Shown here in pieces: positions 3,182 through 32,314 of a stretch of 64,000 nt of DNA. The position numbers and the translations under genes are program-made. The stretch lies in NCBI GenBank assembly GCA_965205025.1, contig CBDBFU010000002.1, positions 96,001-160,000 on the forward strand. The letters are read 5' to 3'. The first letter of the stretch is position 1. Every line of letters begins with the position of its first letter. This DNA is from Candidatus Poribacteria bacterium. GTDB lineage: Bacteria; Poribacteria; WGA-4E; WGA-3G. The notes under the pieces are model-generated. The model was not told where the DNA came from. It saw nothing but the letters and a program-made list of their open reading frames with translations, and did no database searches.

Positions 3182-4600
3182 ATGCTACTAACCTTAATAC
3201 GAAAAGAGATGATGCATCATCTCCTGAGTGTACGATTTATCGTACTGCTTCTGATGTGCTTGTTCTTGGTACCACTCACCCTTTCAATAAATTATCAACA
3301 ATACCGTCAAAACCTTGTTGACTACCAAGAAGCAGTGAAACTTGCGAAAATTGAAGAAACCACAGTTAATCCAAGCATGGAACTCAAACCAAAGATGGAA
3401 ATATCTAAACTTTTCCTGAAACCAACACCACTGAGTACATTTGCTAACGGATTAGCGGATGCTCTGCCGAGTTATCTTGGAATGACACGAAATGGTGTAA
3501 CTCATGGACCTCCTGCACTGGTTTCTGCTTCTCTCTCTTATCTATTGGGACATCTTGACTTCCTTTTCCTTGTCGGAACAGTTTTCAGTCTACTTGCGTT
3601 GTTGTTCACTTTCGATGCCGTTGCAGGAGAAAAGGAAGCAGGAACACTACGAATTACATTATCAAATGCACTACCCCGAGATCTATTTTTATGGAGTAAA
3701 TTGATCGGAGGTTATATTGTCTTTGTTGTCCCATTCTTAGTGTCGTTTTTATTTAGTTTACTGTTATTAGTTACACAAGGATTCCCATTTAGTGAACCAG
3801 AGGTATTATCACGTATCTTCAGTCTGTTACTTGTTTCATTACTTTATATAGGTGTCTTTTTTGCAATAGGAACACTTATTTCCACCTACTTAGACAATAC
3901 CAAAACCGCACTCATAATCGCCTTTACTGTTTGGGTATTTACAGTCCTAATTACGCCACGGGTTGGATTTATTGCGGCTAAATTTATTGTTCCAACACAG
4001 ACTTCTCAGAGTGTCTATCTTGAAAAAACCACAGTCCGTGAAAATTATATAGAGGAATTAGAAGAAAAGAAAAAGGATGCCTATAATGCCTTCTGGCGTG
4101 ACAGACCTCAACCGACTACATCTGAAGAACGGTTTTCAATCTATGGTGAATTTGATAAACATATAAAACCGCTTGAGGAGGAATTACGCCAGAAGTACAA
4201 CGACAGTGCAAATGAGATCAATAAGCGATATAAACGTGATCAGTCAAGGCAAGAAGCCGTAGCTGAAACACTCTCCAGAATCACACCAACGTCTTCTCTT
4301 ATCTATGTCGTTACAAACATAACACGGACAGGAAAAGTAAAGAGAACGAACTACTTTCAAGCAGGAGAACGGTATTACGAGGCACTTGATGTAGATCTGT
4401 TCAGTAACCTCAGAGATTACATACCGGTAAGAGTGTTTATACCAACAGATTCTGTCCAAATTACACAACCACCTCCTATAAAAACACTTTCATTGAGTGA
4501 GACAATTCGCTTTTCCTTGATGGATTTACTTTTGTTATGCTTTTTTGCAATCTTACTAACGACAATAGCGTTCTTAAAGTTCTTTCGCTCAGATATCTGA
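3182..4600 (+). CDS. ABC-2 type transporter permease, subfamily A
   Basis: MLLTLIRKE start, FDAVAGEKEAGTLRITLSN motif, several TM helices, C-terminal FFRSDI. Confidence 0.92.
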   Translation: MLLTLIRKEMMHHLLSVRFIVLLLMCLFLVPLTLSINYQQYRQNLVDYQEAVKLAKIEETTVNPSMELKPKMEISKLFLKPTPLSTFANGLADALPSYLGMTRNGVTHGPPALVSASLSYLLGHLDFLFLVGTVFSLLALLFTFDAVAGEKEAGTLRITLSNALPRDLFLWSKLIGGYIVFVVPFLVSFLFSLLLLVTQGFPFSEPEVLSRIFSLLLVSLLYIGVFFAIGTLISTYLDNTKTALIIAFTVWVFTVLITPRVGFIAAKFIVPTQTSQSVYLEKTTVRENYIEELEEKKKDAYNAFWRDRPQPTTSEERFSIYGEFDKHIKPLEEELRQKYNDSANEINKRYKRDQSRQEAVAETLSRITPTSSLIYVVTNITRTGKVKRTNYFQAGERYYEALDVDLFSNLRDYIPVRVFIPTDSVQITQPPPIKTLSLSETIRFSLMDLLLLCFFAILLTTIAFLKFFRSDI

Positions 4601-4604
4601 GAGG

Positions 4605-4862
4605 CAGGAATTGTGCCAAATCGCACCTCCATCTTATCACATCAGATTTGGGTTTTCTATCAATTGATACGCAGGTTGTACTTCATGGAAATCCCAATTT
4701 CTCTGGTGTATGCTTACCTATCCGCATGGAACCGGATGTATCTAAGATTGATCTGCCAGACCTCAAGAAACTTTCTATTTCTTCAATTAAGTTTGGTGGA
4801 GATTTCATAGAAGAGTAACTCACCCTCTTTTCCTTTTTCTGCTCAATATGCGTAAGTCCTGA
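4605..4862. repeat. degenerate CAGGACTTACGCA-family element
   Basis: Exact right end TGCGTAAGTCCTG at about 4848-4861. Degenerate left end CAGGAATTGTGC at 4605. Confidence 0.4.
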
Positions 4863-4947: not shown

Positions 4948-6450
4948 ATGCTCCTAACACTTATCCGTAGAGAGATTCTTGACAATCTAATGACATTTCG
5001 ATTTGCGGCAGCAAGCTTTATTATGCTACTCCTTGTTGTTGCAACGACCGGTGTACTTATTAGAGACTACGAACGTAGGTTAGAAAGTTTTGACACTGCT
5101 GTCAAAAAACATCGCCAAGAAATGATGGATACAACTACCTATTCAGCAGTAGACTTAACGATTGATCGTCCTCCAAATCCTTTGAGCATTTTTAATGTTG
5201 GTTTAGACAAACGATTAGGAAACACACTCGGTATTAGTCACTTTTTCGTACCATCACTTTGGGATGCAGGAAAGCATGGGGCAGATAACCCTTATCTGAA
5301 TCTATTCGCATCTATAGATCTTGTTTTTATTTTTCAGGGAATTCTCAGTCTTTTAGCACTCATCTTTGCCTACGATACACTTGCTGGTGAGCGTGAACGT
5401 GGCACGTTGCGACTTGTACTTACACACCCTGTTCGACATGGTCAAATCATATTTGCCAAATACATGAGTGGTATGATATGTCTATTAATACCTTTACTGA
5501 TGTGTATTCTCCTTGTGTTAATAATGCTAACCACATCTTCATCTGTTTTTCTGAGTGTAGATGATTTTCTACGCATCGGTGGAGTTGTTTTTACATCCTT
5601 CGTTTATCTGTCTCTGTTTTTCCTTATCGGCATGTTAATCTCAGCCCTAACTCGTCGAACGAGTACTGCACTTATGGTTGCTATGTTTGTATGGGGATTT
5701 TTGGTGCTGGTGTATCCAAATCTTATACTTACGGCAGTTGACACTGATCCACACCCAGATACCGAACCTTCTGCTTACAACCAAATCAAGCAGATTTGGG
5801 AAGAATTTGACAAGGATCGACTACAATACCTCAGAAATGATCCTGTAGAAGGTGAAGATTATGATTTTGACCTGTCAGGTGATGGTTACACTTTTCGGGG
5901 TCCTACGGATAATTCATCAAGATTGCTATATTACTACGTTACTGGATTCCACCATAAAAAACTTAAAGAGGAGTCTGAACCTAATGTACCACACGCTCAA
6001 GACTATCATCGCTTTTTCGGGACGCAGGTCACCCACACTGCAGAGCGTATGTGGCTTGTTCGAGAACCCGCTTTGGAGGCATTATATACACAACCCGCAA
6101 AATTGGAACAGATGCTATTAAAGTTTTCTCCTGTTGGTTTGTATGATGCAGCAACCGAAGCTTGGACAGGAACAGACTTGAATGGGTTACAAGATTTTTT
6201 CACAGCAAGTCAAAGGCATCATCAGTCAGTAATGGATTATTATCATGACAATAAGGTATTTGAGTCTCGACTATGGATCGTTGGTGCAGAAGGTGAAATT
6301 GACTGGAATCAAATGCCGCAGTTTTCCTTTCAAAGAAGTGAAATTGGTGTCAATGCCAAACGTGCAGCTCCAGAATTAAGTCTGTTGGTCATGCTTAACC
6401 TGGTCCTGTTCACTATAATCTTTCTGATTTTCGTTCGTAGTGAGGTATAA
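4948..6450 (+). CDS. ABC-2 type transporter permease, subfamily B
   Basis: RPPNPLSIF and YDTLAGERERGTLRLVLTHPV motifs, C-terminal FVRSEV. Confidence 0.92.
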   Translation: MLLTLIRREILDNLMTFRFAAASFIMLLLVVATTGVLIRDYERRLESFDTAVKKHRQEMMDTTTYSAVDLTIDRPPNPLSIFNVGLDKRLGNTLGISHFFVPSLWDAGKHGADNPYLNLFASIDLVFIFQGILSLLALIFAYDTLAGERERGTLRLVLTHPVRHGQIIFAKYMSGMICLLIPLLMCILLVLIMLTTSSSVFLSVDDFLRIGGVVFTSFVYLSLFFLIGMLISALTRRTSTALMVAMFVWGFLVLVYPNLILTAVDTDPHPDTEPSAYNQIKQIWEEFDKDRLQYLRNDPVEGEDYDFDLSGDGYTFRGPTDNSSRLLYYYVTGFHHKKLKEESEPNVPHAQDYHRFFGTQVTHTAERMWLVREPALEALYTQPAKLEQMLLKFSPVGLYDAATEAWTGTDLNGLQDFFTASQRHHQSVMDYYHDNKVFESRLWIVGAEGEIDWNQMPQFSFQRSEIGVNAKRAAPELSLLVMLNLVLFTIIFLIFVRSEV

Positions 6451-7952: not shown

Positions 7953-9458
7953 ATGTTAGCTTCACTTATCAGCAGAGAACTACTTAACAATCTCATGACA
8001 TTCCGATTCGCTGCGGCAATCTTCATCATACTATTACTTGTAGTTGCTAATACAATTGTACTCATCAATGATTATGAGGGACGATTAGATAGCCATAACG
8101 ATTCGGTCAATATGCATAAGCGACAACTACAAGAAATTAAGACATATTCAGCAGGTAATGTACGTATTGATCGTCCTCCAAATCCTTTGAGCATTTTTAA
8201 CGTAGGATTTGATAAACAACTTGGCAATGAGGTACGAATCGCACCTGTATTTGTTCCGTCATTGTGGGATGCTCAGAATCACGGATCTTCTAACCCATTA
8301 ATGGATATGTTTGCTTCAATGGATATTGCATTCATCTTTGAAGTTATACTAAGTCTTCTTGCACTAATTTTTGCTTATGATGCATTTGCAGGAGAATACG
8401 AAACCGGTACATTACGCTTAGTCTTAACGCATCCAGTAAGACGGGGGATTATATTAGTTGCAAAATATATCAGTGCCATGATCTGTCTAATTGTTCCTTT
8501 AATATTGAGTCTACTCCTATCGCTTATTTTACTGACGGTATCCAACCATATCAACTTAAATAGCCAAGATTTTCTTCGTGTTGGCGGAATTATACTAACA
8601 TCTATAATCTATCTTTCCATATTTTACTTAATAGGATTATTGATTTCTGCGGTAACTCGAAGGACAAGTACTGCACTCATGTTGTCAATTTTTGTTTGGG
8701 GTTTCTTAGTGTTAGTTTATCCAAATATGATTCTTGCTATGATCGGTCCTAATCAACCATCGCAGGAACGTCAGACATCTGCTTACAACACTATTGAACA
8801 AATGTGGCTGGAATTCGACAAAGAACGTAAGCAATACTTAGCAACTGACGATTTTCCGGGAGAAGATTGGGGATATGAACTAAGAGGGTGGGGATCCCGT
8901 TCTGCTTATTTAACCGGTTCTCCTCACAACCTGTTTTATAAATACCGTTGCGTCATGAATTTTAGCGGATTTGGCGAGGAAGATGAACCTAAGATCCCAC
9001 ATGCACGGAAGCATTTCCGGTACCTCGTTCCAAAAATTATTGATACTGCAGATAAAACTTGGATAATTCGAAAACCTGCTCTTGAAGATATTTACATTCA
9101 TCCAGCAAAAATGGAAAGAATCTGGTTCAAATTATCTCCTGTTGGTTTGTATGATGCGGCAACAGAAGCTTGGGCAGGTACTGATGTAAATGGCATTAGA
9201 GATTTTTTCAATACTGCCAGACAATATCGAAAACAAGTAATTGATTTTTTCTACGATAAAGATGTGTTTGGATCTCGAGAATGGTTTTCATCTGATAAAG
9301 AGGCAGCGGATTGGAGCGACCTACCACATTTTAACTATCAAAGAGTCGATAGTCACATAAATGCAATGCGCGCATTACCAGATGTATGCTTACTATTCAT
9401 AATAAATATCTTACTTTTTGTTGTAATATTTATGATTTTCGTCAAAAGTGAGGTATAG
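7953..9458 (+). CDS. ABC-2 type transporter permease, subfamily B
   Basis: Paralogue of 4948..6450 (RPPNPLSIF, GEYETGTLRLVLTHPV). Confidence 0.92.
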   Translation: MLASLISRELLNNLMTFRFAAAIFIILLLVVANTIVLINDYEGRLDSHNDSVNMHKRQLQEIKTYSAGNVRIDRPPNPLSIFNVGFDKQLGNEVRIAPVFVPSLWDAQNHGSSNPLMDMFASMDIAFIFEVILSLLALIFAYDAFAGEYETGTLRLVLTHPVRRGIILVAKYISAMICLIVPLILSLLLSLILLTVSNHINLNSQDFLRVGGIILTSIIYLSIFYLIGLLISAVTRRTSTALMLSIFVWGFLVLVYPNMILAMIGPNQPSQERQTSAYNTIEQMWLEFDKERKQYLATDDFPGEDWGYELRGWGSRSAYLTGSPHNLFYKYRCVMNFSGFGEEDEPKIPHARKHFRYLVPKIIDTADKTWIIRKPALEDIYIHPAKMERIWFKLSPVGLYDAATEAWAGTDVNGIRDFFNTARQYRKQVIDFFYDKDVFGSREWFSSDKEAADWSDLPHFNYQRVDSHINAMRALPDVCLLFIINILLFVVIFMIFVKSEV

Positions 9459-9459
9459 A

Positions 9460-11081: not shown

Positions 11082-12683
11082 ATGCTGCAATCAATCTTAC
11101 AATTGAGAACTTTTTATCACAGACCGTTTCTGTCTTCGAAATTGATAACATTTCTACTCGTTACTACACTATTTGTTGGGTTTCAACTTGCTACACACGC
11201 AAACGCTGGTGAACTGCTACTACAGTTAGAAGATTTCAAAGACCCAGGCAGTTTAACTGTGAAACTTCAAGATGAGCGCGCTGCCGTATCAAAATTCATA
11301 GTCGAACAATTGTCTGACAAAACACAACGACTTTTAAACGAATATGATGGTGTAAACACCCCAACTGTCCCCCTTCAAAAAGCACTACTTTCCGATTTAA
11401 ATCGACTACTCCAAACGTCTCAGTTCTACGACACCCAAAGTTTTGCTAAAATCAAACTTAGTAAGCAGACCCAGCAACTACTTGCGCAAAACCCGCAACG
11501 TGGAGAAACGTTAGTTCGTCTGAATCGTCTTCTTTTAGCAGACACATACCCTTATGAATTAACTGCACCATCCGAACAGCACACCCATGAAGATTCCAAA
11601 GAGATTGAGAAATGTAGAGAGAATTTAAGACAGATAAAACTTGCACTTGAGAAATATCGTGCCAAAGAAAATAATAATCCAAAATGGCTTTCTGAACTGT
11701 CTCCACAATATTTAGACAAAAAAGTACTGCTTTGTCCTGCGGATGCGACAAAGGGTAATCCTGGCGTTTTAACAGTAGACGCCGAGGATCCGACGTTACC
11801 GTGTAGTTATCTCTACGAATTTCGTTCTTCTCAGAAAGTAGGTCAGGATATCTTATTGGAACATCAGGGTGATATGCTACCTATTGTCCGATGTCAGCAT
11901 CACCAGCTCAATTTGAGTGTCAGCGGCAAACTTTATCGTAATGGTCCTCAAAGAATTATTTACAATAACAGCACAGTGAAAATTACGCAAACCTCCTCCG
12001 TGTCAAACCCTTCCTCAGCAAATCTGCCTCCAGAAGTTAAAAAGCAAATGCAGGAAGAACACCTAAAAAAAGGTCATGGAACAACACATACCACTACCAT
12101 TCAACTTGACGGATCTAAGGACTTTCGAGCGCAACTCAAAGCGCAATTCGGTGAGGCGTACCTTGAATCACCGGAGGGAAAAGCACTACTAAAGCAGTTG
12201 GGATCGGCACAACCCACGTCATCAAATCAGGAAATACTGGCAAACCTTAAAGACAAACCGATGCCAGACATTGATTTGACTGATCTATCGGGAAAACCTA
12301 TTAAGTTAGAGGAATTGCGCAGCAAATTCGTTCTTATGAATTTCTTTTCGTTAGACTCTGACACCAGTGGGAAAAAGTTACAACATCTGGAGAAACTGCT
12401 TAAAAACCATAAAACCTCCCAATTGAAGACAATCGGTATTAGCTACAACGATTCTACAAAGGTGATTGATACGTTCAAGAAAAAACATAAACTTTCAATG
12501 CCTATCTGGCGCGCTAAAAACGACCAGATACAAGACCACCTTAATATAGATATGTCTAAATCACAAACGGAACTTATAACGATTCTTTTAAATCAGGAAC
12601 TACTTGTAATAGATGTATTTATAGATTTGAATCCAGAAAACCTTTCAGAAAAGGTTAAACAGCTAATTGAGTCGAAAGAGTAA
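11082..12683 (+). CDS. secreted multidomain protein with pilin/pseudopilin-like middle region and C-terminal redoxin-like fold lacking CxxC
   Basis: Hydrophobic N-terminal signal. CRENLRQIKLALEKY..LLCPAD..CSYLY region. C-terminal PDIDLTDLSGKPIKLEELRSKFVLMNFF, which is TlpA/AhpC-TSA-like. Confidence 0.7.
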   Translation: MLQSILQLRTFYHRPFLSSKLITFLLVTTLFVGFQLATHANAGELLLQLEDFKDPGSLTVKLQDERAAVSKFIVEQLSDKTQRLLNEYDGVNTPTVPLQKALLSDLNRLLQTSQFYDTQSFAKIKLSKQTQQLLAQNPQRGETLVRLNRLLLADTYPYELTAPSEQHTHEDSKEIEKCRENLRQIKLALEKYRAKENNNPKWLSELSPQYLDKKVLLCPADATKGNPGVLTVDAEDPTLPCSYLYEFRSSQKVGQDILLEHQGDMLPIVRCQHHQLNLSVSGKLYRNGPQRIIYNNSTVKITQTSSVSNPSSANLPPEVKKQMQEEHLKKGHGTTHTTTIQLDGSKDFRAQLKAQFGEAYLESPEGKALLKQLGSAQPTSSNQEILANLKDKPMPDIDLTDLSGKPIKLEELRSKFVLMNFFSLDSDTSGKKLQHLEKLLKNHKTSQLKTIGISYNDSTKVIDTFKKKHKLSMPIWRAKNDQIQDHLNIDMSKSQTELITILLNQELLVIDVFIDLNPENLSEKVKQLIESKE

Positions 12684-12786: not shown

Positions 12787-14238
12787 ATGTTATTATCGCT
12801 AATTCAAAAAGAGATTATGCATCATATTCTGAGTGTTCGGTTTGTAGCACTTCTCTTAATGTGTGTTTTACTTGTCCCGCTTACGCTCTCTATCAATTAT
12901 CAAAATTATCGCCAAAATCAGATAGACTATCAAGAAGCAGTCAAACGTGCTAACGCTGAAGCAAAAGAAAATCCACCAAATGCATTAGATCCTGACAAGG
13001 AAGTTTCCAAACTTTACCTCAAACCCACGCCATTAAGCGTATTCGCTAACGGGTTAGAAGAGGCACTGCCTACCTATCTTGGAATGACCCGTAATGGTGT
13101 AAAGCAAAGTTCAACAGAACTTACCCAGGCGAGACTTTCTTTTGCGCTGGGTAATCTTGATTTTCTATTTGTTGTTAGCACGGTGTTTAGTCTGCTCGCT
13201 TTGTTATTTACGTTTGATGCTGTTGCGGGGGAAAGGGAAACAGGAACGATACGAATTACCCTCGCAAATTCCCTCCCTCGCGACCGCTTCCTGTTAGGAA
13301 AGCTGATTGGCGGATATCTTGTGTTCGTTGTTCCATTTTTTGTATCGTTTTTATTTGGTTTGTTGTTGCTTGTTTGGCAAGGGTTTCCCTTGGGTGAACC
13401 TGATATCTTCCCCCGAGTAATGACTTTGACCCTTGCCGCATTGCTCTATATTGGGGTGTTTTTTGGGATAGGCACGGTTATTTCCACTTACTTAGACAGT
13501 GCCAAAACTGCGCTCATTGTCGCATTTACCGTCTGGGTGTTCACTGTACTGATCGCACCACGTGTTGGATTTCTTGGAGCGAAAATCATCGCACCCACCC
13601 GAACAGAGCAGAGTGTCTATATGGAAAAAGCATTACTACGACAGGACCTCTTGAAAGAAAAACAACAAAAATTAAATAATAAATTTTTTGAAACCCTTGG
13701 CGATGGTAGATTCAGTTTAACAGAGGATCTTAAAGAAAAAATGGATGAACTTAGGGTACCTCTTGAAGAGGAATACCGACAGAAATTTCAGGACCAGGTG
13801 AGCAAAATTGATCGGGAGTACCAACGCCAGCAGGACCGACAAGAACGGATGGGAGAGATGTTTTCCCGAATCACGCCAACATCTTCTTTAATCTATCTGG
13901 CAATGAACTTATCACAGACAGGAAAACTGAAAAGAAACACCTATTTTGATACAGGAAACCTTTATTACGATCAACTTGATGAAGAATATTTTAAGGATGT
14001 TTCAGATGACGCCCTCGCCATGGCGACAAATCTGTCAGATCGTATGACAGCTCGTATGAATCCTTTTGCAGTATCTTCTAATCAAGAAACAGAAAAAATT
14101 TCACCTGCCCCTGACCTAATAGAATCTTCATTATTTGACACATTGAGACATTCTATGTTAGATACATTTCTTCTCTGTGTTTTTGCTGTCGCACTCACAA
14201 CGGTAGCGTTTTTGAAATTCTTCAGGTTAGATATTTGA
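12787..14238 (+). CDS. ABC-2 type transporter permease, subfamily A
   Basis: Paralogue of 3182..4600, ending FFRLDI. Confidence 0.92.
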   Translation: MLLSLIQKEIMHHILSVRFVALLLMCVLLVPLTLSINYQNYRQNQIDYQEAVKRANAEAKENPPNALDPDKEVSKLYLKPTPLSVFANGLEEALPTYLGMTRNGVKQSSTELTQARLSFALGNLDFLFVVSTVFSLLALLFTFDAVAGERETGTIRITLANSLPRDRFLLGKLIGGYLVFVVPFFVSFLFGLLLLVWQGFPLGEPDIFPRVMTLTLAALLYIGVFFGIGTVISTYLDSAKTALIVAFTVWVFTVLIAPRVGFLGAKIIAPTRTEQSVYMEKALLRQDLLKEKQQKLNNKFFETLGDGRFSLTEDLKEKMDELRVPLEEEYRQKFQDQVSKIDREYQRQQDRQERMGEMFSRITPTSSLIYLAMNLSQTGKLKRNTYFDTGNLYYDQLDEEYFKDVSDDALAMATNLSDRMTARMNPFAVSSNQETEKISPAPDLIESSLFDTLRHSMLDTFLLCVFAVALTTVAFLKFFRLDI

Positions 14239-14315: not shown

Positions 14316-14341
14316 TGCAACTTTTCTGGTCAGAGTGTGTT
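14316..14341 (+). promoter_or_regulatory. putative ECF sigma promoter TGCAAC-N16-TGTT
   Basis: The same motif and spacing recur at 19617, 21331, 24978 and 27728. Confidence 0.55.
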
Positions 14342-14430
14342 AAAAACAATTAACAAAGGTTTGATGACACAAAAGTGTGCTTATAAACAGTGGTAGCACC
14401 TCAATAATTTACACTAACAAAGGAGACATT

Positions 14431-15387: not shown

Positions 15388-15543
15388 ATATTACTAACGC
15401 TAATTCGTAAAGAGATGATGCATCATATTCTGAGCGTCCGCTTCGTCGCGCTCCTTGTGATGTGTCTCCTTCTCGTCCCGCTCACACTTTCTACAAATTA
15501 CCGAAATTATCGACAGAACTTAGTAGATTACTAAGAAACCGTC
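15388..15543 (+). pseudogene. 5' remnant of subfamily A permease
   Basis: Homologous to the 26174 start, but ATG is changed to ATA, CAA is changed to TAA at 15532, and the copy is truncated. Confidence 0.85.
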
Positions 15544-19385: not shown

Positions 19386-19409
19386 AGTTTGTATAAATAA
19401 CGTGAGTTT

Positions 19410-19562
19410 GATAAACGATATCCACGGACAAAGTGGCTTCAACTGATTTTGGAGATAGGAGAGACATTCCGTCAATCTCTTGTAGATATACTCCTGCTCT
19501 GCTTCTTTGCGGTCGTGTTGACAACTGTGTCATTTCTGAGATTTTTCCGTTCTGATATTTGA
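19410..19562 (+). pseudogene. chimeric remnant: 46 bp of the ECF C-terminal domain fused to the 3' end of a subfamily A permease
   Basis: 19410-19455 is identical to 22199-22244. 19461-19562 encodes ETFRQSLVDILLLCFFAVVLTTVSFLRFFRSDI*. Confidence 0.85.
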
Positions 19563-22848: not shown

Positions 22849-23322
22849 ATGCTACTAACGCTAATTCGAAAAGAGATAATGCATCATATTCTGAGCATTC
22901 GATTTATTGTACTGCTTTTGATGTGTCTTTCACTTGTCCTACTCACCTTTTCCATTAATTATCAAAATTACCGTCAGAACCTCGTTGACTATCAAGAAGC
23001 TGTCAAACTTGCCAACACCGAAAAAGCTAAAGTTAACACGAACATGGAACTGAAACCGGAGTTGGAAAATCCACAACTCTTTCTGAAACCAACACCGCTG
23101 AGCGTGTTCGCTAACGATTTAGGAGATGCACTACCGAGCTATCTTGGTATGACACGCAACGGCATCACACAAGGACCACTTGCACTGGTTTCCGCTTCAC
23201 TTTCCTATCTTTTGGGACATCTTGACTTTCTTTTTCTTATCGGCACTGTTTTCAGTTTGCTCGCGATCTTGTTTACTTTTGATGCCGTAAGTAAATTTTT
23301 TCGGTATACCCGTTCAAGATGA
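22849..23322 (+). pseudogene. truncated subfamily A permease joined to an ECF C-terminal tail remnant
   Basis: 22849-23288 is nearly identical to 26174-26613. After FDAV the DNA switches to a homologue of 22338-22480, continuing to about 23431. Confidence 0.85.
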
Positions 23323-23486: not shown

Positions 23487-24905
23487 ATGTTGCTACCACT
23501 AATTCGAAAAGAGATGATGCATCATATCCTGAGCGTTCGATTTATTGTACTGCTTCTGATGTGTCTTTTGCTTGTTCCACTAACCCTTTCTATCAATTAT
23601 CAAAATTACCTCCAAAATCTTGTTGACTATCAAGAAGCGGTTAAACTGGCAAATATTGAAGAGAAGACAGTAAACCCCAAGATGCCGCTGGAACCGGATA
23701 TTGAGGTTTCTAAACTCTTTCTCAAACCGACACCTTTGAGTGTATTTGCAAAAGGATTAGGAGACGCGCTGCCAAGTTACCTTGGCATGTCCCGTAATGG
23801 GATTATTCAAGGAGTTTCAACTTTGGTTTCGGATTCGCTTCCCTATCTTTTCGGACATCTCGACTTTCTTTTTCTTGTAGGCACTGTTTTCAGTTTGCTC
23901 GCGCTGCTATTTACCTTTGATGTAGTTGCCGGAGAACGAGAAGCGGGTACCCTTCGGATCACCTTGGCAAATTCTCTGCCGCGTGACCTTTTTCTGTGGA
24001 GTAAATTAATTGGCGGATATATAGTGTTTGTAGTGCCGTTTTTGGTATCCTTTCTATTCGGCTTATTGGTACTTGTTTGGCAAGGTTTTCCCCTCGGTGA
24101 ACCCGAAATTTTTCCACTAGTGATCAGTCTAACCCTTGTCTCGCTGCTCTATATTGCTGTCTTCTTTGCGATAGGTACAGTCATTTCAACCTACTTAGAT
24201 AATTCCAAGACTGCCCTCATCATAGCCTTTACGGTTTGGGTATTTGCTGTACTAATTACACCACGTGTTGGGTTTATCGCGGCAAAAATCATCGCCCCGA
24301 CACAAACTTTACAGAGTGTCTATCTGAATAAAACGGCTCTCCGTGAGAATTTCAACGCAGAACTTGAAGAGAAAAAAAGGGAAATATACAAAGAACTCTG
24401 GCAGAATCGTCGGCAACCTTCCTATGAAGAACAGGGGGAAATCGGAGAACAGGTGGATGAACAGATGAAACCTCTCGAAGAGAAATTTCGGCAGAAATTC
24501 AAAGAGCACGCTGATGAAATAGATCGAAACTATCAGCGTGAAAAGAAGCACCAAGAACAGGTAGGTGAAACGCTTTCACGAATCACACCGATATCCTCCC
24601 TAACCTATCTCGCTACAAATTTAACACAGACTGGAAAACGAAAGAGAAACGATTACTTTCAAGCAGGTGAGCATTACTATGATGCGCTTGATACGGATGT
24701 GTTCAGTAAAATTATAGATCATGCTGAGATAAGAATGTTCCATCCAAAGACCGACATCGTCAAAATCAGGCAGCCATCATTTTTGGAAACCCCAACCTTA
24801 AGAGAGACATTCCGTCAATCGGTGGTGGATGTCCTGCTGCTCTGCTTTTTTGCGGTCATATTGACAACTGTGGCGTTTCTGAAATTCTTCCGTTCGGATA
24901 TTTGA
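23487..24905 (+). CDS. ABC-2 type transporter permease, subfamily A
   Basis: Paralogue of 3182..4600, ending FFRSDI. Confidence 0.92.
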   Translation: MLLPLIRKEMMHHILSVRFIVLLLMCLLLVPLTLSINYQNYLQNLVDYQEAVKLANIEEKTVNPKMPLEPDIEVSKLFLKPTPLSVFAKGLGDALPSYLGMSRNGIIQGVSTLVSDSLPYLFGHLDFLFLVGTVFSLLALLFTFDVVAGEREAGTLRITLANSLPRDLFLWSKLIGGYIVFVVPFLVSFLFGLLVLVWQGFPLGEPEIFPLVISLTLVSLLYIAVFFAIGTVISTYLDNSKTALIIAFTVWVFAVLITPRVGFIAAKIIAPTQTLQSVYLNKTALRENFNAELEEKKREIYKELWQNRRQPSYEEQGEIGEQVDEQMKPLEEKFRQKFKEHADEIDRNYQREKKHQEQVGETLSRITPISSLTYLATNLTQTGKRKRNDYFQAGEHYYDALDTDVFSKIIDHAEIRMFHPKTDIVKIRQPSFLETPTLRETFRQSVVDVLLLCFFAVILTTVAFLKFFRSDI

Positions 24906-25003: not shown

Positions 25004-25089
25004 AAACAATTAACAAAGGTTTGATGGCACAAAAGTGTGCTTATAAGCGGAGATAGCACTCAATAATTTACACTAACAAAGGAGACATT

Positions 25090-26013
25090 ATGAACGGTAA
25101 AATCACTATGCGGATACTTTCACTTTTGACAGTTCTGGGTATAACTATCTTTTTTGGATCGGAAGCGAACTCAGAAACACCAGAGAATACAGAAGGGTAC
25201 GGTTTGATTGAAAAGACAGAAATAACGAACAATTCTGGAAAGTTCAGTTTAAGTGAAATGACAAAATTAACGAAAGGCACACTAAGTACCATTAAAGACT
25301 ATACTGGGCCGCAAACCGCGCAAGCATTGATAGAAACGTTTGATAATATTTACAATCACAACCATTTAAAAACCACAGTGGCAGTGATTGTATACCGTAA
25401 AACCGACAGTGGAACTATTCTAAAAAACGGAAAAAGACATGTCAGCCAGTTTACAAACGAAGAAATTGACACACGATATCCGAAAGCAGCATGGCTTCAG
25501 CTTCTTTTAGACAACGGTATAACCATAGAAAATTTCGGAGATTATACATCTTATCTGTCAAAGCGATACACTTTGGCTTTTCTGAAAGACAATCCTAGTC
25601 TTCGCAACCCTGGGATGATCCACATTCCACCAACAGATAATTGGGAAGCTTATAAAGCCGCTTTTCATAATTGGGAAGCTTATAAAGCCGCTTTTATCTA
25701 TAAGTTGGTAAACAGACATATTAAGAAGATACAGGAAGCAGCAGAACGGGCTGAACGGAGAAAAGAACAGGGTGAACAGGGTAAGGAACAAGTTAAACAA
25801 GTAATGGCAGAGATTGAACGTGCTAAAGCGCAATTTGAACGAGCCAAGGAACAAATTGAACGGGCAAAGAATAAGTTCAATTCACAACAACTTGAAAACG
25901 TTAGGAAACAGATTGAACACTTACGAGAGACCTTAGAACGTCTTAAAGAATCAATGCCTTCTCAGAATCCAAAACAAAAGATGAAAAAGAAACCTCGCAC
26001 TATCCAGATATAG
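25090..26013 (+). CDS. secreted protein with ECF-associated domain and C-terminal coiled coil
   Basis: Paralogue of 14431..15225, with the same QNPKQKMKKKPRTIQI end and a signal peptide. Confidence 0.82.
   Translation: MNGKITMRILSLLTVLGITIFFGSEANSETPENTEGYGLIEKTEITNNSGKFSLSEMTKLTKGTLSTIKDYTGPQTAQALIETFDNIYNHNHLKTTVAVIVYRKTDSGTILKNGKRHVSQFTNEEIDTRYPKAAWLQLLLDNGITIENFGDYTSYLSKRYTLAFLKDNPSLRNPGMIHIPPTDNWEAYKAAFHNWEAYKAAFIYKLVNRHIKKIQEAAERAERRKEQGEQGKEQVKQVMAEIERAKAQFERAKEQIERAKNKFNSQQLENVRKQIEHLRETLERLKESMPSQNPKQKMKKKPRTIQI
25637..25695 (+). repeat. in-frame 30 bp tandem duplication
   Basis: ATAATTGGGAAGCTTATAAAGCCGCTTTT occurs twice, giving NWEAYKAAF x2. Confidence 0.9.
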
Positions 26014-26173
26014 TATAATGCCATAGACCTTTACGGACGACTCTGTATTCATTAATATTAATAAAACTTGCACACCTAACGTATTTGCTTGTTTAGTTGT
26101 TATAACCGCCCTGCAATACAGGTTTTGTGAGTCAGGAAGGGTTGTTTTTGCCATCATATATGGAGAATGCTAA

Positions 26174-27595
26174 ATGTTACTAACGCTAATTCGTAAAGAG
26201 ATGATGCATCATATCCTGAGCATTCGGTTTATCGTCCTACTTTTGATGTGTCTGTTACTTGTCCCACTCACCCTTTCCATTAATTATCAAAATTACCGTC
26301 AGAACCTTGTTGACTATCAAGAAACTGTCAAACTTGCCAACACCGAAGAAAACAAAGTTAACACAAACATGGAACTGAAACCGGAGTTGGAAGTTTCAAA
26401 ACTTTTTCTGAAACCAACACCGCTGAGCGTGTTTGCTAACGGATTAGGCGATGCGCTGCCGAGTTATCTTGGTATGACACGCAACGGCATAACACAAGGA
26501 CCCCCTGCGTTGGTTTCCGCTTCACTCTCCTATCTTTTGGGACATCTTGACTTTCTTTTTCTTATCGGCACTGTTTTCAGTTTGCTCGCGCTCCTGTTTA
26601 CTTTTGATGCCGTTGCAGGTGAAAGGGAAGCTGGAACACTCCGGATAACTTTGGCAAATTCCTTGCCACGCGACCTGTTTTTGTGGAGCAAATTGATCGG
26701 TGGATACATTGTGTTCGTTATCCCATTTTTAGTGTCACTCCTATTCGGTTTGCTGTTATTAGTTGCGCAAGGATTCCCGTTGGGTGAGTCGGAGATTTTC
26801 CCTCGAGTCCTCAGTCTTACACTTGTCTCTTTAATCTACATTGCAGTCTTTTTTGCGATAGGCACGGTGATTTCAACCTACATAGACAATTCTAAGACAG
26901 CACTCATCGTCGCGTTTGCCGTATGGGTATTTGCTGTACTAATTACACCACGTGTTGGATTTATCGTGGCAAAAATCATCGTACCGACACAAACTTTACA
27001 GAGTATCTATCTGGAAAAGACAGTCGCCCGCGAGAATATCAATGCAGAAAAGAAAGGAAAGAGGGATAAGATACATGAAGAGGTTTGGAAGGGACACTCT
27101 CACTCTCAAAGTTCTTTTGAAGAACAGATCGCATTGGGACAAGAGATTGATAAACAAATGGAACCGATTCATGAGGAATTTCGACAGAAATTCAATGACA
27201 GTGTTGACGAGATAGACCGACGATATGAACGTGAACAAGCAAGACAAGAAGGCGTAACTGAAACACTATCCCGCATTTCACCGACATCCTCTCTCATTTA
27301 TCTCACTACAAACTTGACACAGACCGGAAAAACGAAAAGGAAAAACTACTTTCAAGCTGGGGAACGCTACTATGTTGCGCTTGATGAAGATTGGTTTAGT
27401 AAAGTCGTAGACAATCTCTCCTTTAGAACGATGGATCCAAAGAAAAACATCCAAATTACGCAGCCACCTCCTTTGGAAACTCCAACCTTAGTTGACACAT
27501 TTCGTCAATCCTTAGTAGATGTACTGATGCTCTGTTTCTTTTCGGTTGTGTTGACAACTGTGGCGTTTCTGAAATTCTTCCGTGTTGATATTTGA
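26174..27595 (+). CDS. ABC-2 type transporter permease, subfamily A
   Basis: Paralogue of 3182..4600, ending FFRVDI. Confidence 0.92.
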   Translation: MLLTLIRKEMMHHILSIRFIVLLLMCLLLVPLTLSINYQNYRQNLVDYQETVKLANTEENKVNTNMELKPELEVSKLFLKPTPLSVFANGLGDALPSYLGMTRNGITQGPPALVSASLSYLLGHLDFLFLIGTVFSLLALLFTFDAVAGEREAGTLRITLANSLPRDLFLWSKLIGGYIVFVIPFLVSLLFGLLLLVAQGFPLGESEIFPRVLSLTLVSLIYIAVFFAIGTVISTYIDNSKTALIVAFAVWVFAVLITPRVGFIVAKIIVPTQTLQSIYLEKTVARENINAEKKGKRDKIHEEVWKGHSHSQSSFEEQIALGQEIDKQMEPIHEEFRQKFNDSVDEIDRRYEREQARQEGVTETLSRISPTSSLIYLTTNLTQTGKTKRKNYFQAGERYYVALDEDWFSKVVDNLSFRTMDPKKNIQITQPPPLETPTLVDTFRQSLVDVLMLCFFSVVLTTVAFLKFFRVDI

Positions 27596-27727
27596 AATAG
27601 AAGACTATTGTATGCCAACAAAACTAACCGTACAGGACATTTTTCTGATTTTTTTTGAAAGAATTATCTCAATAACAAGTGTCGGTATCGTGGATTGTTT
27701 AAGGACAGACCACATCATTAAAATTAA

Positions 27728-27757
27728 TGCAACCTTTATACCATAAAACGCGTCTAA
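27728..27757 (+). promoter_or_regulatory. putative ECF sigma promoter TGCAAC-N17-CGTCTAA
   Basis: Upstream of the ATPase-NEW3-TolC genes. Confidence 0.55.
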
Positions 27758-27819: not shown

Positions 27820-28554
27820 ATGTTAGAAACGCGCGAACTAACTAAAGTCTATAACGAGGAAGTTTTAGCTGTCAATAAACTAAACCTAAAAGTCGAAGAT
27901 GGGGAAATCTATGTTGTTCTGGGAGCAAACGGGGCAGGCAAAAGCACAACTATATCCATGTTATTGAATTTCATTGAACCCACAAGCGGTACTGCACTGG
28001 TGGGTGACATTGAAATCCCTAAGTTCCCATTGGAAGCAAAAAAACATCTCGCTTATGTTTCTGAAAACGTTGAACTCTACAGGAATTTTACTGCGCGTCA
28101 GAACTTATCCTTTTTCGCTAAATTAGGCGGTAAAAAGAAGGTCTCAAACGATGAGTTGGATGCTACACTCGAAAGAGTTGGATTACCTAAAGAAGCATTT
28201 ACGAGACGAGTAAAGACATTTTCAAAGGGAATGCGTCAACGTCTTGGAATCGCAATTGCCATTATGAAAGACGCACAAGCTGTATTGCTTGATGAGCCAA
28301 CTTCCGGACTTGATCCTAAAGGTGGCGCGGATTTCCTGAATCTATTGCGTGAATTAAAAGAGGAAGGGAAAGCTATCTTTATGTCTACCCACGATATTTT
28401 CCGTGCGAAAGAAATTGCGGATAGAATTGGAATTCTTGTACAGGGAAATCTTGAACAAGAATTATCCAGAGATGAAATCCAAGATGCTGATCTGGAAGCA
28501 CTATATCTGCATTATGTGGCTGGATATGAACCATCAGAAGACCCCAGTCCGTAA
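27820..28554 (+). CDS. ABC transporter ATP-binding protein
   Basis: Walker A GANGAGKST, signature FSKGMRQR, Walker B LLDEPT, H-loop STHD. AAGGAG SD before ATG 27820. Confidence 0.97.
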   Translation: MLETRELTKVYNEEVLAVNKLNLKVEDGEIYVVLGANGAGKSTTISMLLNFIEPTSGTALVGDIEIPKFPLEAKKHLAYVSENVELYRNFTARQNLSFFAKLGGKKKVSNDELDATLERVGLPKEAFTRRVKTFSKGMRQRLGIAIAIMKDAQAVLLDEPTSGLDPKGGADFLNLLRELKEEGKAIFMSTHDIFRAKEIADRIGILVQGNLEQELSRDEIQDADLEALYLHYVAGYEPSEDPSP

Positions 28555-30862
28555 ATCCCAAATATCACTTACTTATCACCAAACCGTAAATTACAATAAT
28601 TGGGGAAAAGCCTTGCGAATTATATTTTTTATACTGGTTTGCGTCGTCTTAGTGGGGATAGCACATCACGTTGTGTTGGCAGTAGAATCTGAAGAACCAG
28701 CAAGCGATGTAAATGCTACAAAAACCAGAGATGAACAAAGCCGTCAAATCCTTATTGAAACTGCACGTTTAGAGATGGAATTGGCGGAAAACCTTATGAA
28801 TAAGAAAAAGGTTGAACTTGATAACTTACGAAAGATGGTTGAAGAGGAAAACAATATCATCACTGTAGCTGAAGTAAACAATGCTGAGGAGGCTTATGAA
28901 AGTGCTGTTTCCGAACATGAAAAAGCTAAACTAAATCTACAGAAAGTAGAATTGGATTCACTCAAGAATGCTTGGCACATTACTGTTGAGAGCACACGGC
29001 TTTATGAATCTCGTGAGGGTCGTGAGATGTTTTCAATTACACTTCAAAACAGTTCATTACCTGTAAAATTAGTTGAGAGTTCCAAAGTTATGGGACGAGA
29101 TATCGTGATTAGTGCACAAATTGATGATATCTTCGTATCAATAAAAGAAAAAGAGGAATTTGGTTCAGGTGGAGCGATTATTGCTGAACCCTACGAACGG
29201 CGTATCAAAACACTCAAAGAGGATGAATCTACTACTTTGGAATTTGAACTTATCAAAGAAGATGTGCGGGATGTTGTTGTCCATTTAAAATACCTTGATA
29301 CAACGGATGAACGGAACATACATCTAAAACAGGAAGATCCATATATCTCTGTAGTTTCAACAAGGCGATATAAAGAAGGTGATCGTAGACGTATTGAAAT
29401 TGTTCTGACTTATGGTGCGGTGAAGGATGAAACCGAAGAGACTAACGTTAACACTGCCCAAGAAATTAACAATGTCTATGTTTCTATCAAAGATGAGAAT
29501 GCAGCCATTATCGGTTTCCCTTATGAATTCCGTATTCCGACACTAAAAGATGGACAAAAAAAGACACTTGATTTTGAATTACGACGCAACGTGGATAGTC
29601 TCACGGTTAATCTAAGATACTTAGATAGGGAATATCCGTATAAAATCCACCTTGAAGAAGACACCCGTCACATTTCAATTCTCAGCGCCAAGAAATTCCG
29701 AATTGAGAACCAAATGATGGTAACTATTCAACTGAAGAATACATCAACAACAGAGGCAATGCCAAGTAATGCTACACCTGAAGAAATTGCTGCAGCAAAT
29801 GAAATTCGCTCTATATATGTCTCTTTACTTGATGCAGTAGACAGCACAAATATCGTTAAACCGTATGAAGAGAAAATACCGGTACTCGGTTACAATGAAA
29901 CAGTAGATTTGACATTCCAACTTCAGAAAGACGTTGATAGTCTTAAGGTTTCAATGAAGTATCCTGAACTTGCTGAACCTGATATGCGTCTGATCTATCT
30001 TCAGAAAGAATCTGCATTGGATGTTGTAAATGTCAGTTCGTTAAGGTTTTCTCAGGAAGGGAATTTGGGTAGCAGTGTAACCTATGATTTAACCTTGGAT
30101 AGGTTGGCAGAAACAGAAAATACCTTCCAGTTGCGTGTCATCAACCTATTGAATCGTCTCTCGTTTGAATTCCAAGACCCGGAAACAAAATCTCGACAAT
30201 CTCAAGTAAAATTTACACAAGAACAATCTAAGCGAAACCTATCATTAATTGTGTATCTACCGGAAGAACTGGATGCGACCTACCTTGACAATACCCTGGA
30301 GTTCTATGTTGCTGTGGTTGATGAAACAGAGGCGAATGAACTTGGAGGAGTTAATAATCGGTTAGATTTACCAGATGAAAAGATTGCCAGTATACAAGGT
30401 GGCGTTGAGCGTTTTGAATTAATTCCAAAAGGAGTACCGGAGATTGAGGTGTCTGTTCAAAATGCGTTTCAGACGATAAAGATCGATGAGCAAGTTAACA
30501 TGACTGCCAAGTTGAAGAACATCGGCACACGCGATCTTATTGATCTTCGTATGATTGTGGATGTTAATCCAGATTGGAAATACACAGTCACACCAGAAGT
30601 CATCAGTTCACTTCAACGGAACGAGGAAAAAGAAATACAACTAACACTAAATCCTCCAGGGGATATTAGTGTGGGTGAATATCAAGCAAAGTTAACTGCT
30701 GAGGTGACCGTTGATAATCGAGAATTTGAAGCACGCGACCGTTCCATCACAATACTGATTGAATCAAAATCACAATTATCAATCACAACAATGTTGGTTG
30801 GTGCATTGATACTTATAATGATTGGTATTGTTATTGTCACAGTCCGAATTAGTCGACGATAA
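28526..30862 (+). CDS. membrane protein with coiled coil, repeated Ig-like domains and NEW3 (NPCBM-associated)-like domain
   Basis: N-terminal TM or signal, coiled coil, and three repeats of I..I(Y/F)VS...II..PYE..I..L...L.F.L. Then KNIGTRDL..PDWKYTVTP..L..GEY (NEW3-like) and a C-terminal TM with basic tail. Start uncertain. Confidence 0.75.
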   Translation: MNHQKTPVRKSQISLTYHQTVNYNNWGKALRIIFFILVCVVLVGIAHHVVLAVESEEPASDVNATKTRDEQSRQILIETARLEMELAENLMNKKKVELDNLRKMVEEENNIITVAEVNNAEEAYESAVSEHEKAKLNLQKVELDSLKNAWHITVESTRLYESREGREMFSITLQNSSLPVKLVESSKVMGRDIVISAQIDDIFVSIKEKEEFGSGGAIIAEPYERRIKTLKEDESTTLEFELIKEDVRDVVVHLKYLDTTDERNIHLKQEDPYISVVSTRRYKEGDRRRIEIVLTYGAVKDETEETNVNTAQEINNVYVSIKDENAAIIGFPYEFRIPTLKDGQKKTLDFELRRNVDSLTVNLRYLDREYPYKIHLEEDTRHISILSAKKFRIENQMMVTIQLKNTSTTEAMPSNATPEEIAAANEIRSIYVSLLDAVDSTNIVKPYEEKIPVLGYNETVDLTFQLQKDVDSLKVSMKYPELAEPDMRLIYLQKESALDVVNVSSLRFSQEGNLGSSVTYDLTLDRLAETENTFQLRVINLLNRLSFEFQDPETKSRQSQVKFTQEQSKRNLSLIVYLPEELDATYLDNTLEFYVAVVDETEANELGGVNNRLDLPDEKIASIQGGVERFELIPKGVPEIEVSVQNAFQTIKIDEQVNMTAKLKNIGTRDLIDLRMIVDVNPDWKYTVTPEVISSLQRNEEKEIQLTLNPPGDISVGEYQAKLTAEVTVDNREFEARDRSITILIESKSQLSITTMLVGALILIMIGIVIVTVRISRR

Positions 30863-30892
30863 AGTCTGAGCGTTGACAACTATTCCCAAAAA

Positions 30893-32314
30893 ATGGAGAT
30901 AGAAATGACCCAAAGGATTACACATCTGTGTGATTATCATAATTTATTTTTTATTTTGCTTGTAAACGCTATGTTCATGTTTAGTGGAATTGGTGATGTA
31001 CCTGGTCAAGAAATGGTATCACTTCAGGCAACGCGTGCCATAGAACTCGCCTTACAAAACAACGAAGCAGTAAAAAAAGCAGAAAAAGTAGTGCAACGAG
31101 CAAAGGCAAACCTCGGCGTATCCAAAGCAGTATACTTACCTCAGGTTGGTATTACCAGTGAATATAAACGGCAAAAAGATGGTGATTTTGAAGATAGAGA
31201 TTATCTCACTCGCGCACAAATGAGTTTTCTCTTTGCACAATTCGGTGAAATACCAGACGGACTTGATAATGCACATGAACAGGTACGTAAGGCAGAAATT
31301 GAGTACGAAAGAGTAAAGAAGGAAACTGTTCATGCTGTGCGAAATCTCTGGCATGACATTACACTTACACAAGAGGAAATTACACAACGACAAGCAATTG
31401 AGGTAGAACTACAAAAGAAGCTAAAGGGAACTCAAATCAAACATAAAGAAAAACGTATTCCTTTTCTTAGTCGACTCAATACGGAACTTGAACTATCTGA
31501 ACAACAACTTTCACTAAACAGACTACAACGTCGACTTGATGTTGACACTGCAGAACTCATCCGTCTTACTGGATTGGATCCACTTGCACAGGTGTCTTTA
31601 TCTCAACCACTCACTGACGACGAAGTGACATTGGAAGAAGCAGTTGAACTTGCACTTACAAATCGACTTGATCTGCAAGACTTACAAGGTGATATTACTC
31701 GGCAAGAACGATTGGTTGCAGAGACAATATGGAACAGATTTCCTGAACTCTCCGCTGAAGCACGTTATAGAGACCTACACCTACTATTGGAACAACACCA
31801 ACAGAATAATACCTGGGATGCAAAGGCATTGTATGATCCTGCGATTCTTAATCGGGAAGGCAATCTACCGAGTCCTTTTGAAATAAACCCTCGAACACAA
31901 GATGGTTGGGAACTTCGTTTCAATATCAATATTCCGTTATATGATGGCAAAAAGACTGAAAACCTTCGTTCAGCAGAACTGGCTGAATTGGAACGTCTCC
32001 AATTAGAATATATAGAAATAGCCAAGTTAATCAAGGTGGCAGTCCGGCGTGATTACCGTGAAGTAGCAAATGCGAAAGAACGGATGGAAATAGAACAGAA
32101 ACGTGTTAAGATCTTTGAACAACAATTACGCACTATAGAGCGAGTCTTGGACGAAGTCACTGTTGAAATACCTGGATACCGAGGATTAACATTTAACGAT
32201 GCTTTTCAGGCACAAGCACAATTCACTGAAGCGCAACGAGTATCTTATCAAGCCAGACGAGACTATGCCAAAGCAAAGGAAAGATTACGTGAAACAATGG
32301 CATGGATTGAGTAA
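30893..32314 (+). CDS. TolC family outer membrane efflux protein
   Basis: Signal peptide, AIELALQNN, YLPQVG, LEEAVELALTNRLDL and NIPLYDG, consistent with two OEP repeats. Confidence 0.88.
   Translation: MEIEMTQRITHLCDYHNLFFILLVNAMFMFSGIGDVPGQEMVSLQATRAIELALQNNEAVKKAEKVVQRAKANLGVSKAVYLPQVGITSEYKRQKDGDFEDRDYLTRAQMSFLFAQFGEIPDGLDNAHEQVRKAEIEYERVKKETVHAVRNLWHDITLTQEEITQRQAIEVELQKKLKGTQIKHKEKRIPFLSRLNTELELSEQQLSLNRLQRRLDVDTAELIRLTGLDPLAQVSLSQPLTDDEVTLEEAVELALTNRLDLQDLQGDITRQERLVAETIWNRFPELSAEARYRDLHLLLEQHQQNNTWDAKALYDPAILNREGNLPSPFEINPRTQDGWELRFNINIPLYDGKKTENLRSAELAELERLQLEYIEIAKLIKVAVRRDYREVANAKERMEIEQKRVKIFEQQLRTIERVLDEVTVEIPGYRGLTFNDAFQAQAQFTEAQRVSYQARRDYAKAKERLRETMAWIE

Follow-up and report, generated by a model that had tools for sequence, protein, structure and literature searches.

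An array of type V ABC permease genes with a single ATPase, a putative inverted adaptor and a TolC-family gene in Candidatus Poribacteria

The analysed stretch of DNA, hereafter the window, comprises 64,000 nucleotides of a Candidatus Poribacteria bacterium genome (assembly GCA_965205025.1, contig CBDBFU010000002.1, positions 96,001 to 160,000; the placement agrees with the named homologues) and harbours a plus-strand block of genes at window positions 3182-32314, located between a carbohydrate-kinase/YjeF gene and dnaE. According to open reading frame (ORF) calling and Pfam searches this locus contains ten intact permease genes of ATP-binding cassette (ABC) transporters (469-511 aa), which belong to three types designated A, B and C, one frameshifted A copy and three A-type remnants, together with one gene each for an ATPase, a 778-aa NEW3-domain protein and a TolC-family protein. 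The same count of permease genes, all on the plus strand, had been given in an earlier note made from the sequence alone, and is confirmed by the positions and the matches to PF12679. The system is a variant of the tripartite ABC-TolC machines that is new in the build of its adaptor, in its type V transporter and in a many-to-one repertoire of permeases reaching about fifty. It probably acts as an ATP-driven tripartite exporter in which one constant core is combined with exchangeable permease dimers, and these would choose the cargo by the tip of a periplasmic hairpin. A description of this system was not found in the open-access literature, subscription journals lying mostly outside that search.

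Copy numbers of permease and core genes

A profile of the ten permeases detected 15 ORFs in the whole 5.66-Mb genome, every one of them within the locus, while three further weak PF12679 matches lie outside it. The NEW3 protein and the locus TolC are single-copy in the genome according to BLASTP, and the three other OEP/TolC genes are distant from the locus TolC. The closest paralogue of the ATPase shares 36% identity with it. Thus, the genome encodes no other close ATPase.

The same relation was found in other Poribacteria. Eleven of 21 genomes, the source included, contain 5-25 permease matches along with exactly one full-length adaptor, exactly one ATPase of at least 84% and exactly one TolC of at least 59% identity; the other ten lack such a core, except for a distant partial system in the fragmentary genome G011. 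Within the phylum the adaptor was detected in 116 of 176 genomes and permeases in 120, all of the 116 being among the 120; the permease search scored at most nine candidates per genome and hence recorded presence only, and copy counts are derived from separate searches. Three of the four genomes with permeases and no adaptor are incomplete or fragmented, one of which (G124) has the ATPase; the fourth is G083.

Twenty-two genomes, chosen as single-contig and adaptor-positive and hence providing no frequency estimate, encode 2-54 permeases, one ATPase (17 genomes) or two (five), one TolC (19) or two (three) and one or two adaptors, with one TolC per core in 22 of 22. The highest numbers of permeases on one core were counted in G162 (54), G149 (51), G174 (48), G137 and G159 (45 each). 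In G162 permeases, ATPase, adaptor and TolC stand at 54:1:1:1, so that the permease genes of this genome (54 of about 1.45 kb) take up as much as about 80 kb. Most modules in the heavily expanded genomes are scattered far from the core, the window with all of them together being a special case. The ATPase is 82-100% identical across Poribacteria and 48-61% in other phyla. Genome-wide and cross-genome counts therefore agree with the proposal that many permeases have one ATPase and one TolC in common.

Outside Poribacteria a scan of GTDB for adaptor loci found 197 loci, of which 80 were kept. These are labelled Latescibacterota, Gemmatimonadota, KSB1, Bacteroidota/Ignavibacteria, Calditrichota, Zixibacteria and Acidobacteriota/Aminicenantes. 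Two permeases were identified in 23 and three to seven in 18 of the 46 loci of at least 17 kb; both B-C pairs and A types standing alone are represented, along with additional types of pairs. In 20 genomes drawn from the 80 adaptor loci, which again give no frequency estimate, there are 1-29 permease matches, with one adaptor in 19 and one ATPase in 16. A gene of the OEP family directly adjoins the adaptor in 18 of the 80 loci (five of the 18 were scanned, all OEP), and six of ten genomes tested have a match to the TolC group at E below 1e-40 elsewhere in the genome. The neighbours of the core in these phyla include tandem-PDZ genes (19 loci), histidine kinases and response regulators (34 each), serine hydrolases, S41, S9, S15 and M19 peptidases and a divergent two-component pair, which may give a hint at the cargo. 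In 19 loci (L084-L137) that have no TolC next to the adaptor, the tandem-PDZ protein, of about 250-300 aa, is encoded just upstream of the adaptor, frequently across from a two-component pair of the OmpR type.

Seven loci labelled archaeon, Eubacteriales or Synechococcus (L060, L073, L104, L120, L127, L131 and L134) also carry the system, one of them with TolC. Their bins may be mislabelled or contaminated, the system being of Gram-negative type.

Permeases, modules and putative adaptor

All ten intact permeases passed PF12679 (ABC2_membrane_2; E 6e-28 to 4e-34), and none of them matched the FtsX or MacB families of Pfam. The identity between types A, B and C is 25%. The best solved relative is NosY, both by profile (E 9e-13) and by fold (7o0y; Z 18.0, root mean square deviation (rmsd) 3.9 Å over 225 residues, for a model with a predicted local distance difference test (pLDDT) score of 61). 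The best permease matches were NosY, ABCG/ABCA, KpsM and PmtD, and all of the top 17 structural matches of this model of only modest pLDDT are membrane domains of ABC transporters, NosY and ABCG first (Z 18.0-10.8). The permeases are thereby shown to have the type V ABC fold. DUF3526 gave seven matches in the genome, all weak and all in the array, six of which exceed the cut-off.

The earlier note had described a large variable loop before the last helices. Variability does peak there; the “loop” is, however, the tip of a long periplasmic helical hairpin which follows the fifth transmembrane segment (TM5; model helices 275-305 and 314-365) and is lacking in NosY. Column entropy reaches its maximum at this tip (2.15 bits in A, 2.89 in B, 2.73 in C) in comparison to 0.1-1.7 bits in the TM2-5 core. 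For the pairwise ratio of non-synonymous to synonymous substitution rates (dN/dS), values of 0.03-0.09 were obtained in the TM2-5 core, as opposed to 0.16-0.29 in the hairpin, so selection on the hairpin is relaxed but purifying, and positive selection was not found by dN/dS at the level of regions. The alignment also confirms the conservation of the transmembrane segments and the GE.E.GT motif. The GE.E.GT segment is almost invariant over 68 sequences from several phyla, as would be expected of a common docking site for the ATPase. The diversified repertoire that had been proposed stands as a set of old, stable paralogues under purifying selection, and not as fast variation of the antigenic type.

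In close A pairs dS is 0.5-0.6 at the gene ends in comparison to 0.25 in the hairpin, a hint that paralogues exchange their conserved ends. Region-wise best hits on such an exchange are suggestive only.

Types B and C are organised in pairs. The retrieved loci contain 223 full-length permeases, namely 52 of type A, 86 of type B and 85 of type C. A C gene directly follows 79 of the B genes, and 13 genes are unpaired, including pairs split by insertions, a broken partner and a gene at a locus edge. Trees of B and C, calculated with FastTree and leaving out G011, mirror each other with r 0.971 (shuffles within genomes reached at most 0.289), and 50 of 55 well-supported B splits were found again in the C tree. 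B-C pairs are thus shown to duplicate and persist as units, and the distinction of an inherited B-C pair and a lone A unit holds genetically; a B-C heterodimer would follow from the dimeric build of ABC transporters.

Genes encoding extracytoplasmic function (ECF) sigma factors accompany many permeases. In the two kindred genomes G149 and G162, 22 of 50 permease blocks have an ECF gene as their immediate neighbour on the same strand, in comparison to 13 of 172 control genes of the same loci. A predicted ECF-type promoter-like site was detected at -89 to -95 of the ATPase gene in six of ten orthologues examined, the source included, and the putative promoter element TGCAAC(T/C)TTT has five copies on the plus strand of the locus and 60 in the genome. 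This motif was rejected as a general marker: only four of the 60 strict matches precede ECF genes, and in G149 and G162 just five of about 90 full-length permease genes have a related motif within 150 bases.

Two further types of genes recur beside A permeases, designated X and Y, and Y is also found as the C-terminal part of an ECF sigma factor (ECF-Y). Orthologues of the ECF-Y fusion (74-80% identical) are located at the arrays of seven other genomes, and all 13 strong Y matches (E<1e-60) lie at permease loci, in five genomes with the system. The source genome has four more copies of the Y domain elsewhere, and neither Pfam nor the ESM Atlas provided a match for it. An X homologue is located directly upstream of four of the 50 permease blocks in G149 and G162, and most B-C pairs have no accompanying partner gene. 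Y was rejected as an obligatory partner, since G016 has the system but no Y, and weaker Y-domain genes were detected in all four system-free genomes that were searched. The Y domain is found in signal-peptide proteins as well as in fusion with a cytoplasmic ECF sigma factor.

ECF sigma factors of Poribacteria without a membrane helix were also observed in in-frame fusion to unrelated proteins, namely FtsZ/tubulin, the DNA polymerase beta clamp, an S9 peptidase, a redoxin and an M61 peptidase (L147:10810-12003, L176:4974-6200, L174:9257-10624, L176:12783-14510, L145:2107-4914, L149:3819-6014, L159:1412-4393). Their junctions often have the appearance of a ribosome-binding site that is translated and precedes an internal Met, which would fit the joining of an ECF cassette to a gene that was once separate.

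The NEW3 protein had been taken for a generic accessory protein of the COG1470 type; it instead carries an alpha-hairpin of the type that docks to TolC. In its AlphaFold2 model (pLDDT 88, 118 sequences) a hydrophobic helix at the N-terminus is followed by a hairpin of two helices (residues 40-121, numbered from position 28610), about five beta-sandwich domains, of which NEW3 is the last, and a membrane helix at the C-terminus. When a profile of 15 distant homologues was compared with the PDB, 11 of 16 hits (E up to 1) were periplasmic adaptors (best E 2e-4), among them MacA/MexA, ZneB, MexJ and EmrA, all aligning to the hairpin at positions 30-125. By structure the hairpin matches AcrA (Z 10.5, rmsd 1.3 Å over 75 residues), HlyD (10.2) and EmrA (9.5), among many generic hits. 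Its tip columns in 118 sequences hold R in 46, L in 90 and S/T in 97, in agreement with the R-L-S type tip motif of adaptor hairpins.

The remainder of the protein does not resemble an adaptor of the known family. Pfam identified NEW3/CARDB and no HlyD family, Foldseek with the whole adaptor found generic multi-Ig proteins (TM-score at most 0.2), and the ESM Atlas contained only NEW3-domain clusters (0.89-0.90). Since BLAST of the protein against itself found no internal repeat, the number of Ig repeats is taken from the model and from three PYE/PFE-type motifs seen by eye. Many homologues outside Poribacteria have 480-550 aa and align to the C-terminal part, and therefore would have fewer Ig units. 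Canonical adaptors possess lipoyl and beta-barrel domains and, in ABC systems such as MacAB and HlyBD, an N-terminal anchor, as outlined in sections of a review (PMC8277102). This build was not recovered by profile, model or Pfam for the present protein, which has Ig-like domains and a C-terminal anchor instead. Judging from the model, it looks like an inverted periplasmic adaptor protein (PAP), with a MexA/MacA-type hairpin on about five C-terminally anchored Ig-like domains, and may best be regarded as a functional counterpart of PAPs from outside their family.

NosDFY (7o0y), which includes the closest solved relative of the permeases, is likewise a type V ABC transporter with a separate ATPase. 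It differs in that NosY is encoded by one gene, has 276 aa and NosD as a partner, and is not known to be associated with an adaptor or TolC. No nosD, nosZ or nosL was detected among the 45 window proteins scanned, the whole genome not having been searched for them, and one NosD-like beta-helix gene was found among 57 neighbour proteins in other phyla. KpsMT-KpsE(-KpsD) (8tsh) shares the type V transporter (Z 12.6 to the permease model); its periplasmic conduit is not a PAP but a polysaccharide co-polymerase, its outer channel is not TolC and it handles one substrate. PmtCD and LanFEG are type V ABC exporters that remove amphipathic peptides. PmtD matches the permeases weakly by sequence (E 0.14) and by fold (Z 12.5), and the ATPase reached E 1e-47 on the lantibiotic-protection model, far below its cut-off. 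However, both systems are Gram-positive, have short permeases and lack an adaptor or TolC.

In YbhFSR-YbhG-TolC a two-permease layout is combined with the canonical adaptor YbhG, a single permease pair and no known repertoire. The review names YbhFSR-TolC of E. coli as a tripartite pump with a hetero-oligomeric ABC transporter and separate ATPase (PMC8277102). MacAB-TolC and HlyBD-TolC also unite an ABC transporter, a hairpin-bearing adaptor and TolC, whereas their transporters are of type VII or IV. In the examples which the consulted sections of the review provide, many adaptor-transporter pairs use one TolC (PMC8277102); in Poribacteria the permeases would have adaptor and ATPase in common as well.

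Proposed mechanism and alternative explanations

We propose that one core of ATPase, adaptor and TolC would serve any of many permease dimers, either A-A homodimers or B-C heterodimers. The ATPase would dock on the invariant GE.E.GT segment kept by all permeases, while the adaptor, anchored by its C-terminal helix in the inner membrane, would span the periplasm on its Ig-like domains and meet TolC with its N-terminal hairpin. Each permease dimer would select cargo from the periplasm or the outer leaflet with its variable hairpin, and ATP hydrolysis would pass the cargo into the adaptor-TolC duct. ECF sigma factors may switch on few modules at a time, in which case one motor gene would suffice. 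The surface sensing considered in the earlier note is disfavoured, because a hairpin of TolC-docking type on the adaptor favours export via a tripartite pump and the variable domains are periplasmic instead of being located at the cell surface.

Peptides or amphipathic compounds cleared from the envelope may be named, tentatively, as the likeliest cargo. It is conceivable, and put forward with similar reserve, that the system represents a new class of trans-envelope machine in which a type V ABC motor is joined to TolC by an upside-down Ig-stalk adaptor. On such a plug-in platform as many as about 50 permease dimers, encoded separately and each equipped with a periplasmic recognition hairpin and an ECF-type switch of its own, would give Poribacteria that live with sponges a library of export specificities to select from, for the defence against peptides of host or competitors, or for secretion. 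Specificity, which in the pumps treated in the consulted sections of the review resides in a dedicated adaptor-transporter pair (PMC8277102), would then shift to dozens of permeases, as motor, adaptor and channel all appear to be common, and the adaptor would be a new way of bridging the periplasm, if this reading is true. Through this system a large orphan permease family of uncultured phyla (PF12679 with DUF3526) becomes amenable to testing, as does the way in which Poribacteria deal with host chemistry. Minimal versions with one to two permeases in other phyla are practical targets for expression and structure determination.

Several observations weigh against the proposed exporter. NosY, the closest solved relative of the permeases, is not known to be an exporter. 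The structural match of the adaptor hairpin (Z about 10) is not decisive alone because a helical hairpin is a common shape, and the tip in Poribacteria deviates by N and M in place of R and L and by a two-residue insertion. G083 (92% complete, four contigs) encodes seven permeases, and neither ATPase nor adaptor was found in it. No TolC of the cluster in question lies beside the adaptor in 62 of the 80 loci outside Poribacteria, and G177 and G178, the most expanded genomes there, have only weak matches to the TolC-group profile (best E 1e-15). The mirror trees reflect the co-duplication of linked genes and not contact, and the ECF-neighbour counts from G149 and G162 are not independent, the two genomes being kin. 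A complex prediction for permease A5 with adaptor residues 350-750 scored 0.00 and weighs neither way.

NosFY moves NosD and is not known to export. The permease dimers might alternatively form a mechanical device of this kind that displaces or sets free a partner protein in the periplasm (Y, X or an ECF-linked sensor domain), with adaptor and TolC as a fixed strut. The rank of NosY as best match by sequence and fold, the confinement of strong Y matches to permease loci and an all-Ig stalk without an obvious sealed channel would be in line with such a device. It seems unlikely, however, since Y is dispensable, most B-C pairs have no partner gene, and a dedicated TolC kept 1:1 with the core suggests flux.

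An importer, whose variable hairpins would be built-in binding domains for nutrients such as peptides, glycan fragments or metal complexes, appears quite improbable. Many specificities would suit a degrader of host matrix, and the DUF3526 matches of the permeases have their only counterpart among the control genomes in Caulobacter, where the match is inferred to be znuH/znuI. The znuGHI genes of Caulobacter crescentus encode an ATPase and two ABC-2 permeases, are repressed by Zur and are called a putative uptake system (PMC4176598). ZnuGHI differs in being a single pair; it is located beside a TonB-dependent receptor and is under Zur control. TolC and a PAP-type hairpin are export hardware according to the consulted sections of the review (PMC8277102), and scans of neighbouring genes (57 and 60 proteins) revealed neither a TonB-dependent receptor nor a solute-binding protein; the 45 window proteins scanned include no such receptor either.

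We give little credence to the notion that birth-and-death amplification has produced largely redundant genes with tips that merely tolerate change. The lineage does amplify many envelope families, with about 70 ECF paralogues in the genome, the number of permease copies varies between 0 and 54 in the family, no match was obtained in 13 of the 39 genomes that belong to this genus, remnants and deletion scars occur, and no dN/dS exceeds 1. However, the lineages of paralogues persist as orthologues in different species, with purifying dN/dS even in the hairpin, and types A, B and C are older than the phylum.

That the array is an assembly artefact of concatenated strain alleles is refuted for the array as a whole, because each intact permease is only 46-76% identical to its nearest array copy and 68-96% to the best copy in another genome, as expected of old paralogues and not of alleles, contigs of the runs X1 and X2 equal the window without differences across gene junctions, e.g. 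10854-14433 (these runs are possibly the source sample and not independent), and equal expansions are present in single-contig genomes. Local sequence quality may be imperfect, as the frameshifted permease A3 differs from its intact orthologue in G004 by five single-base homopolymer extensions and 32 substitutions. Two of these extra bases are missing from the contigs of all four runs compared, which represent related strains, and the frameshifts are due either to sequencing or assembly error or to recent decay. The layout of the array varies among close strains: the core of G004 is 99-100% identical with a different order of modules, and a contig of run X3 joins 21185 to 27650. None of the three outcomes that the earlier note had named as speaking against its reading was obtained, given that other close ATPases are lacking, divergence along the genes is non-uniform and the copies are not strain alleles.

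Gene content of the locus and its surroundings

All positions refer to the window and all features lie on the plus strand. The array begins with permease A1 (3182..4600; 472 aa), a NosY-like type V ABC membrane subunit which matches PF12679 and has a 91% identical orthologue in G004. Two pairs follow, permease B1 (4948..6450; 500 aa) with its partner gene C1 (6537..7946; 469 aa) and permease B2 (7953..9458; 501 aa) with its partner gene C2 (9460..10887; 475 aa from the ATG at 9460). The X protein (11082..12683), a recurrent neighbour of A permeases with an N-terminal hydrophobic segment and a C-terminal AhpC/redoxin domain, precedes permease A2 (12787..14238; 483 aa). Y1 (14431..15225), a signal-peptide protein without a recognised fold but with a C-terminal coiled coil, is considered accessory to A modules. 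It is preceded by the ECF-type promoter-like motif TGCAAC(T/C)TTT (14316..14345), which appears again at 19617, 21331 and 24978.

An A-type remnant (15388..15543) corresponds to the N-terminal 52 aa and is 85% identical to A5 by tblastn. It is followed by permease B3 (15564..17039; 491 aa; orthologue 95% in G008) and its partner gene C3 (17158..18693; 511 aa; orthologue 93% in G002). At 18924..19559 a decayed Y-like gene runs into an A-type C-terminal remnant (37 aa, 19449-19559), a deletion scar in whose translation a stretch of the Y domain is joined to the C-terminus of A, with single extra bases in comparison to related strains. The frameshifted permease A3 (19715..21132), intact in the closest relative, precedes an ECF sigma factor with a fused C-terminal Y domain (21395..22513) and no detected membrane helix. 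The third A-type remnant (22849..23292) comprises the N-terminal 148 aa and then a fragment of the ECF-Y C-terminus. Permease A4 (23487..24905; 472 aa), the signal-peptide protein Y2 (25090..26013; 307 aa) and permease A5 (26174..27595; 473 aa) complete the array. The genes interspersed among the permeases are hence two Y genes, one ECF-Y fusion, one redoxin-domain gene and one decayed Y-like gene, which the earlier note had overlooked. As the remnants are deletion scars fusing pieces of Y or ECF-Y to pieces of A, the repeating unit on the A side appears to be (Y or ECF-Y)-A.

The core genes follow downstream of an ECF-type promoter-like site (TGCAAC-N16-CGTCTA, 27728..27757). They encode the cognate ABC ATPase (27820..28554; 244 aa; PF00005), in which Walker A, signature, Walker B and H-loop read as intact, the putative inverted adaptor (28526..30862), with its hydrophobic helix at 28613-28666, alpha-hairpin at 28727-28972 and C-terminal membrane helix at 30776-30856, and the TolC-family outer-membrane factor (30893..32314), which has two PF02321 stretches and matches TIGR01844 below its cut-off (E 2e-14).

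A single-copy gene of 136 aa without a family match (2756-3166) comes first in the array, behind the YjeF gene, in several relatives. A pair of 35-nt inverted repeats (2444-2478 and 18730-18764) is 91% complementary over a distance of 16 kb. In four runs the summed contig depth of the bin with the second arm is very high, which suggests that a small repeat is present in many copies. Further downstream the window contains a tandem pair of NPCBM/NEW2-domain genes (42096-43838) and a low-GC operon (50131-61421) of three unknown genes, a 1829-aa DEAD/Helicase_C/MrfA-Zn helicase and a PD-(D/E)XK nuclease, which, judged from its Pfam domains, resembles an anti-phage defence system.

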